From the sequence record NC_052655.1: a DNA stretch of 64,000 nt. One strand, given 5' to 3'. A program made the position numbers and the translations under genes. Origin of the DNA: Escherichia phage alia. Within the stretch, counting starts at the first letter, position 1; the number at the start of each line of letters is the position of its first letter. The notes under the pieces were generated by a model. It searched no databases and was not told the origin of the DNA. It was given only the letters and a program-made list of their open reading frames with translations. Positions 23,413 through 38,131 of this stretch are shown piece after piece.

Positions 23413-23649
23413 ATGAAAGAAGTCATGATCCTCAAAAAATCACCTATTTTACGTGGCGGTTTTATCGCTTACTCTGATGATCTGTTAATTGCAACAGTTG
23501 CAAAAATACTAAAATCAGAAGAGGATAGTAAAAACGGCGTTTATCGTATCTGTTTCACCCGTGGAAAATTACAAGGCAAGATCGCCTATGCCTTTGATTT
23601 ACAAGATGTAAATGATAAAATCTGCGCTGTTATTGATTATGCAAAATAA
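23413..23649 (+). CDS. hypothetical early protein
   Basis: Track ORF 78 aa; AGGAAAAAGAAA RBS. Confidence 0.55.
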   Translation: MKEVMILKKSPILRGGFIAYSDDLLIATVAKILKSEEDSKNGVYRICFTRGKLQGKIAYAFDLQDVNDKICAVIDYAK

Positions 23650-23661
23650 TTAACTTTCTTA

Positions 23662-23690
23662 TTGACACCGGATCACGCTTACATTATTAT
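23662..23690 (+). promoter_or_regulatory. sigma70-type promoter
   Basis: TTGACA-17-TATTAT. Confidence 0.45.
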
Positions 23691-23736
23691 TTATCACGTA
23701 GGGCAAATCATTTTAAACGGTAAACGAGGAAACACC

Positions 23737-24120
23737 ATGAGCAATATCATCAACCTGGCGGCTACTGTAAACGGTAAAGATTTTAACGGCGCTGTAGATC
23801 GTGATCCTATGTGGTGCTTATCAGTGTTTAAAGGCGATCTGGTTGAAGTTAGAACAACCGAAGGGTATAGCGATGATTATAAATGCGAGATCCATTTACA
23901 TAACTGGTACACGGGTAAAACTTATGCGCTGAATCATGCGTTTATCGGGAAAATTGAATATCGCGAGATGATCGACGAAGAAACGGGGCAAGATTTTAGC
24001 GAGCATGTTTATATTCGTTCAGAAACATTAGCCGAACGTTTGATCGAGAAAATGAAAGCAAAAAATAAAATTAATTTATCTCATTGGATTGATATAACAA
24101 ACGATCCGGCTTATCAGTAA
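23737..24120 (+). CDS. hypothetical early protein
   Basis: Track ORF trimmed to Met26 with GAGGAAACACC RBS. Confidence 0.5.
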   Translation: MSNIINLAATVNGKDFNGAVDRDPMWCLSVFKGDLVEVRTTEGYSDDYKCEIHLHNWYTGKTYALNHAFIGKIEYREMIDEETGQDFSEHVYIRSETLAERLIEKMKAKNKINLSHWIDITNDPAYQ

Positions 24121-24133
24121 ATAACATTTCATA

Positions 24134-24163
24134 CAAGGGCGCTTATTGCGCCCTTTCTTTTTA
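24134..24163 (+). terminator. rho-independent terminator
   Basis: AAGGGCGC-TTAT-TGCGCCCTT then TCTTTTT. Confidence 0.65.
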
Positions 24164-24366
24164 CCTAAATAAAGATGATAGCTTTTACCTATCAAAAACG
24201 TTCACCGAAAAAAGTGAATAGATCGCGGTATCGAGCTAATCAAGGAGCAGATGAACAACCATACCATGAAGATCATAAGGCGCTTACAGCGTGTTTTAGA
24301 CCGCTTATTTTTAATTTCTTCATGTAACTATCTGGCAAAAACAGCCTTTTTCTTGTCTTTCCTCTT

Positions 24367-24443
24367 AAATGATAATCATTCTTATTTATAGCTGATTATT
24401 TATGCAATAAACTGCATAATGCAATAATGATAATCATTCTTAA
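24367..24443. promoter_or_regulatory. two Fur-box-like sites
   Basis: AAATGATAATCATTCTTAT and AATAATGATAATCATTCTTA; 14-15 of 19 to GATAATGATAATCATTATC. Confidence 0.4.
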
Positions 24444-25281
24444 CTTAAGACCATCTAACTTATAAAATAATAAGTTATCTAACTAAATTAAAGCTAATTA
24501 TCTTACTTTTATTTATAACATACTGTTACTATCTTATTGATAACCTTATATTAAACAACAATAATCAATGTAAATCATTACTAAGCTAACTATAATCTAT
24601 CTAACCCTTAAAACTACAATTATAATCTATCAAATTGTTGCACAAAGTAACTATTAAATTGTTAGTAACATTGCTAAATAATTAATATCCTATCTATTTA
24701 TGATCTAATCTTTACCTCCCTATCTATTACCTAAATAACCATTTCATGTGGTAATCATTTCATACAATAACTATAACAAGAAATATAATTCGCAAGCGTA
24801 TCATTAGCAGCCTATGCCGGACACATAGGCGGCTAATAATAACGCAACTACACACCCCACATAATAACCATCACCGATAGTTATTATTTGTGCTTATGTA
24901 GCTTGCAACAATTGCAAGCGCAACAATATACATGGTATATTGTATCCCTTACATTGTTGCGGTGCGTTATTATTAGCTAATGTTTAGAACATTGGCTATA
25001 ATATAAGCTAAGTAATAAGCTAGTCAATAATAAACATAATGAATAATGACATTAATGATCATAATGCGCCACCCTCCAGGGGGCGCTATGTGAACACAAA
25101 GAAATCATTCTTGTCAAGAAAAATATCACCCTATTGCGCAAAATTATTTATATCTGAATAGATGATTTTTCATACTATTGCCCCCTATAACATACCTCAT
25201 TTGTTGAGCCTACTTTCTTAAAAGCGCAATAAAGTAGAATTATCTTGATTTTTAGTCGGTTTTATAGTACAGAAAGTATGC

Positions 25282-25299
25282 AAATGATAATCATTATCA
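25282..25299. promoter_or_regulatory. Fur-box-like site (strongest match)
   Basis: AAATGATAATCATTATCAG: contiguous 16-nt identity to Fur box positions 4-19. Confidence 0.5.
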
Positions 25300-25463
25300 G
25301 CTATCCTCCAGGGTGGCACTATTTCACGCCAGATCATTTCATTTGGCAAGGTGTATATAGATGTTTAGAAATGCCAAGCCATTGATTTACTTAGAATTTA
25401 TCTGTTTTGTTGTGAGTAGTACCTTTCTTGCTTAGAAAATAATCAAAAGTCTTATAAGTCATT

Positions 25464-25497
25464 GAATGATAATGCAAATGATAATTATTCTCATTGA
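25464..25497. promoter_or_regulatory. Fur-box-like tandem site
   Basis: GAATGATAATGCAAATGATAATTATTCTCATT. Confidence 0.4.
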
Positions 25498-25940
25498 TAT
25501 TTGAGGGGGACGGTCGGCAGAAATCGGGGGGCGCTGAAAATCGCGTTAAGCACCTCTCGCAAGCGAGCAGTATTTTGCGGCAAGTTATTGATATTATTGA
25601 CTTTACGCTTATGAAAAGGGGTGTGTCGAAATAAATCGGGTATACCGGAAAATTTTTTGTGGCATAGATATTTATTTGTCTATATTATGTACAAAGGGGT
25701 GTGTTAAAAATAATAGGTATATATAGAATAATTGATAGGGAAATCCTATACTAAATCCTTCATTAATGATGTTCCTATGTTGCTGTTCTTGTAACAGATG
25801 AAAAGACGCTGTATGATGTGTAGCATGAGACGTAAATTTATAAGATGCAAATAATGCTTGCATTGAATAGAAATGTCTGTACACTGTGTTCCATAAGATA
25901 TGCAATATCGCGCATAACAAACTACTAATGAGAGGTGTAA

Positions 25941-26258
25941 ATGAGAACCTTAGCTTTGTATATTGATCCTCACTCCATTCGAGAAATGCGAGATGTACAA
26001 CAGGATTATGAATTCTACCCAGAAATTTGTGAACGCTATGAAACTATTCTTAGTTCTGTAGAAGATCCAGATACTAGTGAAACAGGTGCTTCCCACTTAC
26101 TGTGGATGTTGAATGAAATTCAGGATGGGTGTAATGATATGTCTGAAACCAAACGCCATCGTTGGCTAGGCTATATTCAGGGTGTTATGGTTATGAAAAA
26201 CCTTATTACAGTGAACGATGAACGTAACGCTACACGCCCCGTCTTTAATGGAGCATAA
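25941..26258 (+). CDS. hypothetical protein
   Basis: Track ORF 105 aa; first gene of a tightly coupled block. Confidence 0.55.
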   Translation: MRTLALYIDPHSIREMRDVQQDYEFYPEICERYETILSSVEDPDTSETGASHLLWMLNEIQDGCNDMSETKRHRWLGYIQGVMVMKNLITVNDERNATRPVFNGA

Positions 26259-26259
26259 C

Positions 26260-26475
26260 ATGAAAAGCATTCAGGTGTGTATTGAAAATAATTGTGGTTA
26301 TCTGGGATTGACACACGTTGCTTTCCCTCTTATGTTAAATGCCGATATCGCTTACAGCGGAGTTGCTTATGTGTCATTCAAGACAATGAGCCAAGTACCT
26401 GGCTGGAAGTGGGAAGTAGTTGATGTTGTTGAAGGAGAAGACTATGTTTTCCTTCCACACGAATATACTGTTTAA
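26260..26475 (+). CDS. hypothetical protein
   Basis: Track ORF trimmed to Met15 with TGGAG RBS. Confidence 0.5.
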   Translation: MKSIQVCIENNCGYLGLTHVAFPLMLNADIAYSGVAYVSFKTMSQVPGWKWEVVDVVEGEDYVFLPHEYTV

Positions 26476-26490
26476 AGAGAGGAAAAGCAG

Positions 26491-26673
26491 ATGGATAAAC
26501 AAACTACTGTGTACTTAGTAACAAAGAATACCCTAGACTGGAACCAATGCAGCACTGTCCCTTACAAGATCTGTGCAACATTAGAACTAGCACAACGCGC
26601 AGAAGCAGAAGTGGATGCCATGCAAATGCAACACAGCTATGGTGAGATCATTCCTCTTACTCTTGAACAATAA
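26491..26673 (+). CDS. hypothetical small protein
   Basis: Track ORF 60 aa; GAGAGGAAAAG RBS. Confidence 0.5.
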   Translation: MDKQTTVYLVTKNTLDWNQCSTVPYKICATLELAQRAEAEVDAMQMQHSYGEIIPLTLEQ

Positions 26674-37318: not shown

Positions 37319-38131
37319 TTATTTAGTCAAATGATCTTCTATCATTTTTATGAAAGCAGGATTGCTAAAAGCATCTGCGGCTTTTTCTCGATAAACAAAG
37401 ACTCCTCTATCTTCGTAAAGAAGAGTTTCTTCGTAATTAATTCCTGGGTTAACAACAATCATTTTTGTACCCATATTAAGTGCAGGGAATAATTCCCAAT
37501 TAAAATTAATAACTTGGTTTGAACATCCTACTACAACAACCAAATCTTGCATGGTCAAAGTATCAAACAAGTGAGCCATATCTGCATACAAAGGTGCAGC
37601 CTCACCAAAAAATACAACATTAGGCTTCACCCAGTTATAATCATCTATGTTTATATTGTTGTAACCGATATCTACCAGTGTCTTGTAATCTCCAGGATGC
37701 ATACGATAAACTACTTCAGGAAGATATCCGTGCACGTGAATAACAGAATTTCTGTCTACACCTGCTCGCTCTAGTAGATCATCAACGTTTGTTGTCAAGT
37801 TTACTATTTGGTTAGGATATTCCTTAAACCACTTTGCTATTTGAATATGTGCAGCATTAGGTTGTACATCTTTAAGCTCAACACGTCTTTTGTTATAAAA
37901 TTCGTGTGTTTTGGCATACAAATCCATACCGTTTTCGTCTACACCACCAACCACTGGAAGATCTGGAGATGTTCTCACACGATAACCTGCTTGGAAAGCT
38001 CCAATATCGCAGATCTCTTCTAAATCATATTCTTCCCATAAAGCACGACCACTATCTGTGTCTGTTCGGAATGTTCGAATCCCACTGTCTGCACTTAAAC
38101 CTGCGCCACTGACAAAAATTACTCTTCGCAT
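37319..38131 (-). CDS. Sir2-like (sirtuin fold) NAD-binding protein without zinc ribbon
   Basis: GAGLSADSGIRTFR, TTNVDDL, HG and VVFFGE motifs; no CxxC pairs. Confidence 0.65.
   Translation of the reverse strand: MRRVIFVSGAGLSADSGIRTFRTDTDSGRALWEEYDLEEICDIGAFQAGYRVRTSPDLPVVGGVDENGMDLYAKTHEFYNKRRVELKDVQPNAAHIQIAKWFKEYPNQIVNLTTNVDDLLERAGVDRNSVIHVHGYLPEVVYRMHPGDYKTLVDIGYNNINIDDYNWVKPNVVFFGEAAPLYADMAHLFDTLTMQDLVVVVGCSNQVINFNWELFPALNMGTKMIVVNPGINYEETLLYEDRGVFVYREKAADAFSNPAFIKMIEDHLTK

Follow-up and report, generated by a model that had tools for sequence, protein, structure and literature searches.

The genomes of Stephanstirmvirinae phages end in direct terminal repeats (DTRs) (PMC12695924). In the record of phi92 (FR775895.2; Schwarzer et al. 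2012) the features PHI92_DTR-L and PHI92_DTR-R are annotated as identical copies of 343 bp each, and the same 343 bp are labelled as DTR in the record of Salmonella phage UAB_1. PhageTerm gave a DTR of 342 bp for BME3 (PMC12210895) and one of 317 bp for the Klebsiella phage FKP3 (PMC11663894). The genome map of rV5 includes a box marked 'non-coding' (PMC3606486). Here we analysed a stretch of 64,000 nucleotides from Escherichia phage alia (NC_052655.1; the whole 64-kb stretch is called the window below), which comes from a phi92-like myovirus of the genus Justusliebigvirus, and within it the ~1.8 kb gap between genes at 24121-25940. From the letters alone, a preliminary description had called this gap likely functional and had offered an origin, a packaging site, a genome terminus or a structured RNA as possible roles. 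Very probably, this sequence represents the two chromosome ends of a virulent phi92-like myovirus, joined as they would be in a concatemer or a circular molecule. The right arm would then finish in a non-coding tail (24121-25206) and the left arm would open with a leader (25549-25940); the tail holds a conserved folded element, most simply an RNA.

The phi92 repeat (positions 1-343) maps to 25207-25548 of the window at 97 % identity over 342/343 bp, and a 1-nt deletion leaves the alia repeat with 342 bp. The flanks are the same in both phages: a Gp30.8-like gene lies to the left and small genes lie to the right, flanking genes for which the earlier label 'early' is plausible. Besides the deletion, alia has a different first gene after the leader, and neither difference is essential. 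In the BME3 record the first 342 nt equal the last 342 nt with zero mismatches and map to 25207-25547, and the Klebsiella phage phi1_175008, with DNA ~72 % identical, has an exact 343-bp terminal duplication that starts at the same aligned base. The FKP3 repeat is nested 13 nt inside each boundary. The order of Gp30.8-like gene, non-coding arm, DTR, leader and small plus-strand genes is that of the subfamily. A genome terminus at this gap is already known for the family, and among the proposed roles this one is supported also for alia, because of the DTR homology, the terminal duplications in relatives (four related records start and end at the same homologous bases) and the same motif at both boundaries. 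The repeat is single in the sequence because assembly collapses it; in the virion of alia it is predicted, by homology, at both ends.

The feature 'DTR-L' in the GenBank record of BME3 (PP239276.1) was considered as a different repeat and rejected. It maps to 25280-25621, starting at the Fur box 3 described below, and lies 73 nt off the true terminal duplication, which is of the phi92 type. The same record (loci L004/L005 in our comparison) has extra internal copies of part of the junction region, and in FKP3 (PP895363) the 317-bp repeat is present twice in the first 817 nt. All of these, the shifted feature included, look like annotation or assembly artefacts in public records.

The whole gap matched 96 phage records in megablast searches. 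The best of them share 95-97 % identity with it along its entire length, and the top matches examined come from Justusliebigvirus, the genus of phi92-like phages in Stephanstirmvirinae. Conservation of the gap inside this genus equals that of the neighbouring genes, and six blocks are conserved between genera. Gaps of 1.5-2.0 kb are found at the same place in Phapecoctavirus (phAPEC8_ev052, phiWec190) and in Klebsiella phage phi1_175008, and the equivalent place in Citrobacter phage Tr1 holds only doubtful calls of open reading frames (ORFs) of ~30 aa. The gap and its key blocks are thus kept in at least four lineages, which agrees with the view that it is functional.

Both boundaries of the repeat share the motif GTTR^AGC followed by a pyrimidine-rich stretch. 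The left copy is GTTG^AGC (25203-25209, plus strand), which would let the virion left end start at A25207, and the right copy is GTTA^AGC (25545-25551, plus strand), with the virion right end predicted to stop at 25547 or 25548. The pattern GTTRAGCM-N2-3-TNTC occurs in the window at 25203 and 25545 only, both times on the plus strand and 342 bp apart. Across five aligned lineages TGTTG^AGC at the left boundary and TCGCGTTn^AGCA at the right one are invariant, as is the right boundary sequence TCGCGTTnAGCA, and the boundary motifs predict DTRs of 321-412 bp in ten lineages. The repeat ends with ...CGCGTTA in phi92 and UAB_1 and with ...CGCGTT in BME3 and phi1_175008. Because the boundary motifs are conserved and alike, we infer a packaging or cleavage site here, with the two GTTR^AGC copies as putative terminase cut sites.

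To the left of the DTR, the minus strand of 24810-24977 carries a conserved multi-helix element of 168 nt. The two palindromes that had been singled out before, GCCTATG-CCGGACA-CATAGGC at 24811-24831 and GCTTGCAA-CAA-TTGCAAGC at 24901-24919, are present as stated and turned out to be helices of this one larger structure, part of which is enclosed by a perfect 15-nt inverted repeat. This repeat forms helix P1 (24963-77 with 24832-46, all helices being given in plus-strand coordinates). The others are the less well defined P2 hairpin (within ~24920-24961), P3 (24912-19 with 24901-08), P4 (24896-24900 with 24849-53), P4a (24876-84 with 24864-72) and P5 (24823-30 with 24810-17). The 3′ arm of P1 has an alternative pairing with the downstream GCUAAUGAU.

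Folded as a single sequence, the element had a z of -7.6 for the minus strand and of -5.6 for the plus strand. In a set of 13 sequences, 99.8 % of the cells of five helices (45 pairs) were paired and 12 pairs had changed on both sides; these values were reached by 0/500 shuffles, and slid controls paired at 25-54 %. With 19 homologues read on the minus strand all 855/855 pair cells were canonical (803 Watson-Crick and 52 G-U), and compensatory changes were seen in 13/45 pairs. The 52 G-U cells, found at nine pair positions, would be A-C mismatches on the plus strand. A covariance model scored 194 bits on the minus strand vs 36 on the plus strand, and it found one copy per genome and a single copy in the window. 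Homologues were recovered from 131 phage records, those examined being all Stephanstirmvirinae, and also from IMG/VR and metagenome contigs. With the filters off, the model found no copy in the more distant relatives L020-L023, and a pattern search in bacterial genomes returned only unrelated metagenome-assembled genomes, which we took as chance matches. Rfam 15 gave no usable family, either at E <= 1 over 23500-26500 or at the gathering score over the whole window; its lone match, snoR14 (21 bits, E = 0.73, 25346-25431), is due to chance. In every lineage the element lies 220-270 bp left of the DTR, with a tract of 73-82 % A+T on its far side. Strand-specific covariation of this kind is strong evidence that a nucleic acid folds here on one strand, most simply as RNA, as had been suggested, and makes the element a well-supported candidate for a new phage RNA family. 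A sigma-70 promoter candidate for it, TTGACT-16-TATATT, was found in alia only (score 10.3, reached by ~4 % of shuffles) and was not used as evidence because it is not conserved in relatives.

The phi29 pRNA (RF00044) is comparable in being a structured RNA of ~170 nt within a few hundred bp of a genome end. The alia element differs from it in having no Rfam match, a different fold and a direction in which transcription would run away from the end. The phage itself is also unlike phi29, with a conventional terminase-type genome with a DTR, and the likeness is positional only.

Inside the repeat we identified an IHF-like core, WATCAANNNNTTR, at 25375-25387 on the minus strand. It is the only one in the 342 bp of the DTR and lies ~4 nt from its midpoint; the whole gap has three such cores (25375, 24628 and 25581) vs 0.28 expected from the window density. 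The specified bases of the core are conserved in five lineages, with variation at the four N positions (GCCA, ACTA, ACCA, GTAG, CCGA). An IHF-type core (YAANNNNTTGATW) is located 170-174 nt from the right boundary in 9/10 lineages, and in Justusliebigvirus, Phapecoctavirus and Klebsiella phi1_175008 no more than 4 nt separate it from the middle of the DTR. By consensus match and fixed geometry, 25375-25387 is shown to be a candidate IHF site.

Four Fur-box-like sites had been noted in the gap, and our search with the 7-1-7 model (TGATAATnATTATCA) recovered all of them, at 24370, 24428, 25285 and 25479. Boxes 1 (24370-24384) and 2 (24428-24442) both read TGATAATCATTCTTA, with two mismatches. 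Box 3 (25285-25299, TGATAATCATTATCA) is a perfect 7-1-7 site, and the 19-mer at 25280-25298 matches the 19-bp consensus GATAATGATAATCATTATC at 17/19 positions. Box 4 (25479-25493, TGATAATTATTCTCA) has one mismatch and lies in a run of AATGAT-like hexamers (25462-25499). Against the 19-mer consensus the four sites score 17, 16, 15 and 14 of 19 (boxes 1 and 4 counted by hand). Such sites are strongly enriched: the window contains five matches to the 19-mer with up to three mismatches vs 0.05 expected per 64 kb, and 12 matches to the 13-mer core vs 0.54 expected. Among the sites with up to two mismatches, 8/9 fall within two non-coding gaps. The second of these gaps contains a dense array of four to five Fur-type boxes (13205-13320), distant from any end.

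The positions of the boxes are also conserved. The block with boxes 1 and 2 (24368-24438) can be aligned between genera, and the same part of the gap is occupied in phAPEC8_ev052, phiWec190 and Klebsiella phi1_175008. In Justusliebigvirus, Phapecoctavirus and Tr1 the left boundary and the start of box 3 are 77-80 nt apart; in phi1_175008 it is replaced by a different box ~25 nt further on, a site turnover as would be expected for a selected binding site. At the place of box 4, seven lineages have a box (up to three mismatches) whose start is 69 nt from the right boundary; box 4 has stayed in place in four of the five lineages aligned, and Tr1 has lost it by deletion. Fur-type boxes were present in the homologous gap of all lineages examined, including three distant IMG/VR relatives with 62-80 % protein identity in the neighbouring gene. 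Some boxes touch possible promoters: box 2 overlaps the -35 of a weak plus-strand candidate, TTAACT-17-TAAAAT (24440-24468), box 4 a weak ATGAGA-17-TATCAT on the minus strand, and box 3 lies behind a conserved weak TTGATT-17-TAnnnA.

The records examined for boxes name only hosts from the Enterobacterales, and these share this Fur consensus. Compared with known Fur operators of Enterobacteriaceae, the boxes match as well as or better than typical chromosomal sites and are likewise clustered or arrayed, and confined to non-coding DNA. Unlike them, they are found in a virulent phage, in a DTR at fixed distances from the ends and with no iron gene nearby. Phage-borne Fur operators have been described upstream of stx1 and of sitABCD on lambdoid phages (PMC6969025). 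A literature search for Fur boxes, non-coding RNAs and transcriptomes of these phages found nothing relevant, and a search of E. coli genomes for a host origin of the Fur-box array found none. We read the gap boxes most simply as putative sites for host Fur.

With its sites in place, the locus can be compared with two well-known types of genome ends. It resembles a T7-type junction in its short exact repeat of a few hundred bp with non-coding DNA on both sides, a palindromic element to the left and candidate host-polymerase promoters just inside the left end. It is unlike T7 in belonging to a myovirus, in the lack of sequence similarity, in the same GTTR^AGC at both boundaries, in the Fur- and IHF-type sites within the repeat and in having no promoter for a phage RNA polymerase. 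As in lambda cos, there is a cut site, a repeated protein-binding box, an IHF bend site and another box. However, lambda has 12-nt cohesive ends and a single cosN, whereas alia has two putative cut sites 342 bp apart and a repeat; its boxes match the Fur consensus and not the gpNu1 R sites, and no homology to lambda cos is seen. A lambda-type cos, in which one nicking site gives cohesive ends without a repeat, does not fit, the relatives carrying exact terminal duplications of 342-343 bp.

The evidence leaves room for other readings of the element and the boxes. The element could act as single-stranded DNA or as a cruciform instead of RNA, either as a fold-back hairpin in repeat duplication and concatemer processing or as a strand-specific signal for a T7-like primase-helicase. 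Chung, Nardone and Hinkle reportedly proposed in 1990 a fold-back role for the palindrome left of the T7 concatemer junction. In favour of this alternative, the element has neither a sigma-70 promoter conserved upstream across lineages nor an intrinsic terminator downstream, and its distance to the DTR is conserved in every lineage. Strand bias alone does not prove an RNA because G-T is the best tolerated mismatch in DNA hairpins. The rV5-like relatives also encode a Pol A-type polymerase and a gp4-like primase-helicase (PMC3606486). However, a 15-bp long-range helix around three or four hairpins, with compensatory changes, 52 G-U cells and not a single mismatch, is typical of functional RNAs; a simple palindrome would be enough for fold-back priming, and the minus-strand fold is markedly more stable than that of the plus strand. 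We consider the DNA role somewhat unlikely. The boxes, for their part, may be recognised by a protein of the phage itself (an early regulator or the small terminase subunit, for example), their likeness to Fur sites being coincidence or mimicry. The two DTR boxes do stand at fixed distances from the cut sites with the IHF-like core between them, a layout that mirrors lambda cosB with its R sites and I1. In lambda, cos is arranged as cosN-R3-I1-R2-R1 and the cosB boxes bind the small terminase subunit. Moreover, the first gene after the gap encodes a putative DNA-binding protein in some relatives (PaulScherrer bas60_0147), and phi92 gp005 is a 'predicted transcription regulator'. Yet box 3, a perfect 7-1-7 site, agrees with the E. 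coli Fur consensus at 17/19 positions, box 4 sits in an AATGAT-type hexamer run like classical multi-dimer Fur operators, the same boxes occur far from the cut sites (the five-box array at 13205-13320 and the pair at 24370-24442), and the named hosts are all Enterobacterales. This makes the phage protein an unlikely ligand.

A replication origin might also be located in the left half, made up of boxes 1 and 2, the AT-rich 24443-24790 and the element. As in the transcription-primed origins of T7 or T4, a transcript would invade the readily melted AT-rich tract, form an R-loop and prime the leading strand. Consistent with this, the 350-bp tract of 73-82 % A+T follows directly downstream of the element in the minus sense, iteron-like ATTAGC repeats stand beside the element in Phapecoctavirus, Klebsiella phages and Tr1 (in phi1_175008, seven copies within 430 bp of the 2-kb gap vs two in 3.7 kb outside), and the rV5 origin could not be located from skew by its authors (PMC3606486). 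On the other hand, the gap has no DnaA box (TTWTNCACA), such as a bacterial-type origin would have, the sequence of the AT-rich tract is not conserved, ATTAGC is not enriched in the alia window (two copies) and GC skew only tracks the direction of transcription; an origin seems improbable to much the same degree as the phage ligand. As an observation on these repeats, ATTAGC occurs 4-7 times on one strand, around and to the right of the element, in loci of Phapecoctavirus, Klebsiella phi1_175008 and Citrobacter Tr1 (L010, 2994-3282; L011, 3019-3443; L012, 3054-3309; L009, 2488-2864). That the gap is mostly a neutral, repeat-accumulating spacer with the DTR as its sole functional part is hardly credible. 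Its parts at 24483-24790 and 24986-25198 are indeed unalignable across genera, indel hot spots lie at 25001-25025 and 25176-25200, and many relatives have gene insertions near the 3′ end of the gap. However, the gap is conserved like its flanking genes within the genus and has six cross-genus blocks, the element shows compensatory evolution and the Fur boxes are kept despite positional turnover. Conserved blocks, compensatory pairs and retained boxes largely refute the spacer view.

For the chromosome-end reading we propose the following working scheme. The packaging terminase would cut the two direct copies of GTTR^AGC, 342 bp apart, and the sequence between the cuts would be duplicated to give each virion a full repeat. 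The DTR would serve as a fixed protein-DNA scaffold, in which an IHF-like bend brings the cut sites together; a sharp bend could join them because the IHF-like site is near the DTR midpoint. Two Fur-type operators within the repeat, one ~78 nt from its left boundary and the other ~69 nt from its right one, would bind host Fur, and box 3, just past a -35-like element 38 nt from the left end, might make the outermost transcription responsive to iron. The 168-nt minus-strand element, ~220 bp left of the DTR, would be a non-coding RNA transcribed away from the DTR toward the AT-rich tract, with a role as replication primer or activator, packaging RNA or anti-defence RNA. In its most far-reaching form, the DTR would be a packaging and entry switch, in which IHF folds the repeat in half and so makes the two identical cut sites meet, Fur bound symmetrically close to both ends gates end cutting or the first transcription from the incoming end by iron, and the 168-nt RNA is dedicated to replication or packaging. 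As a whole we regard this switch as decidedly unlikely.

The outermost transcription would start from a candidate left-end promoter at 25245-25273 on the plus strand (TTGATT, 17-nt spacer, TACAGA), with Fur box 3 directly downstream. Its ATCTTGATTT, 38 nt inside the left end, is conserved in 4/5 lineages (CTCTTGCTTT in Tr1) and is followed 17 nt on by TAnnnA (TATGCG in Klebsiella phi1_175008). We infer from this arrangement a candidate Fur-repressible promoter, the outermost of the left end.

Several points weigh against the scheme. The placement of the DTR in alia rests on homology to relatives, the boundaries of FKP3 are 13 nt off on each side, and the right edges of phi92 and BME3 are 1 nt apart, which makes the precise cut positions uncertain. 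The -10 of the left-end promoter is poor (TACAGA, with a last position that is not T), and a promoter consensus scan gave 16 sites vs 16.0 in shuffles and did not report this candidate. The box cluster at 13205-13320 is unlinked to the terminus, which does not suit the scaffold and suits Fur; lying so far from the ends, it therefore argues against a purely packaging role of the boxes. To these come the possible binding of a phage protein such as the small terminase subunit and the missing promoter and terminator of the element, both discussed above, and a C-A mismatch that P2 carries on the minus strand in the phAPEC8 group.

The Fur boxes at fixed DTR distances, the IHF-like core and the 168-nt element were not found in Rfam, in the record annotations examined or in searchable papers. 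Phages like phi92 and phAPEC8 have a broad host range, are widely isolated and are considered for therapy, and their non-coding DNA is left unannotated or filled with spurious ORFs of 30 aa. The ends and the cut motif provide a rule for linearising and annotating those Stephanstirmvirinae genomes that bear the motifs, and the boundary motifs themselves are testable candidates for terminase recognition. The element, with its 131 phage records, could enter RNA databases and be knocked out directly. From the boxes comes the hypothesis that Fur links early transcription or packaging of a virulent coliphage to the iron status of the host. If the switch existed, a virulent phage would read the iron status of its host through its chromosome ends, and the 168-nt RNA would be a new RNA class specific to the subfamily.

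Regarding coding capacity, the upstream ORF (Gp30.8-like, Pfam PF06019) ends at 24120, and the first ATG after it that has a ribosome-binding site is that at 25941. Within the gap, ORFs reach at most 82 aa (25672-25920, minus strand), followed by ones of 50 or 46 aa, and a Pfam scan of three gap ORFs gave zero matches. The 82-aa ORF was rejected as a gene for its lack of a Pfam match. The 46-aa ORF (24251-24391, plus strand) has an AAGGAG Shine-Dalgarno sequence and is called by some annotators. It is absent in KKP_3264 and in all other genera, has no Pfam match, and all differences seen between its peptides within the genus are amino-acid-changing, so despite the good Shine-Dalgarno sequence it is probably not a gene. 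The gap is thus free of a credible gene, in line with the earlier remark that it has no convincing ORF, and careful annotators placed nothing in it (arall, inny, PATM, phi92). No tRNA or tmRNA was detected with ARAGORN. The genes 3′ of the gap have no recognisable function.

At its left edge the gap starts with an intrinsic terminator (24135-24155, plus strand) with an 8-bp stem, six G-C pairs and a following T run (folding z = -3.4), which is annotated as such in phage PATM. With it ends the upstream operon, which in the virion is the final block of genes ahead of the right end. Apart from this terminator, more folding energy than expected by chance was seen only at 24380-24540, 24740-25020 and 24980-25180. 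The preliminary description had also pointed to many short direct repeats, and the gap indeed has an excess of them: 35 repeated 10-mers vs 7.2 +/- 3.7 in partial shuffles, a crude form of shuffling, and 2-16 in coding controls. The raw count of inverted 10-mers showed no excess, over a dinucleotide-swap shuffle too weak to inform on them. TRF found just three short arrays.

Two spacers separate the conserved parts. The AT-rich one (24443-24790, 73-82 % A+T) contains short direct repeats of the families D4, D14 and D16, aligns poorly across genera and shows neither fold stability nor a DnaA box. The variable one (24986-25206), between the structured element and the DTR, has plus-strand hairpins with z to -4.7, among them GCGCC-ACCCTCCAGG-GGCGC. 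The repeat motif CCTCCAGGG.G.C.CTAT was correctly reported to occur twice (~25073 and ~25306), and only the second copy lies in a block partly conserved across genera. The 36 nt at 25046-25081, with the first CCTCCAGGG copy, are 72 % identical to 25278-25313, a stretch that includes Fur box 3 and runs into the second copy (family D3).

The left-end leader (25549-25940, plus strand) has conserved blocks at ~25587-25640 and ~25693-25756, which include two conserved 'AAAGGGGTGTGT-N12-13-GGTATA' modules (family D2). No consensus sigma-70 promoter stands out in it. AAAGGGGTGTG is found three times in the window (25615-25639, 25693-25717 and 12795-12805), always at the start of a non-coding leader; its copies in the left-end leader belong to a ~35-nt module that ends in GGTATA and is conserved across genera. 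The number of copies was rejected as significant on count alone, being reached by 2/100 shuffles. AAAGGGGTGTG could represent a promoter of unusual type or a site for a regulator. Many relatives have, between leader and first gene, one or two extra genes of ~370 nt each (e.g. PATM_179/180 and inny_220/221; comparison of ~25750-25940 with loci L002, L003, L013, L014 and L018), and the first gene of phi92 is a different one (gp001, 462 nt). Gains and losses of genes seem to be concentrated at the left end.

Elsewhere in the window, a second large non-coding gap (12769-14297) lies downstream of a NADAR-domain gene and has no Rfam match. It contains a 67-nt tandem repeat (12983-13113) with a third degenerate copy to ~13190, and a G+C-rich part of ~0.8 kb (~13300-14080) that is 92-93 % identical even in Phapecoctavirus and present at two places per genome in many relatives. 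The closest database matches, MG065639, MG065645, MG065656 and MG065689, are UNVERIFIED 'Campylobacter phage' records, yet belong to Justusliebigvirus and are 97 % identical to coliphages; the host label of these records is probably wrong. At a switch of strand orientation the minus strand encodes a Sir2-family protein (37319-38131; PF02146, E = 1.6e-22), and a gene for a 465-aa CapR-domain/T5orf172 endonuclease-like protein (10819-12216) precedes the NADAR gene.

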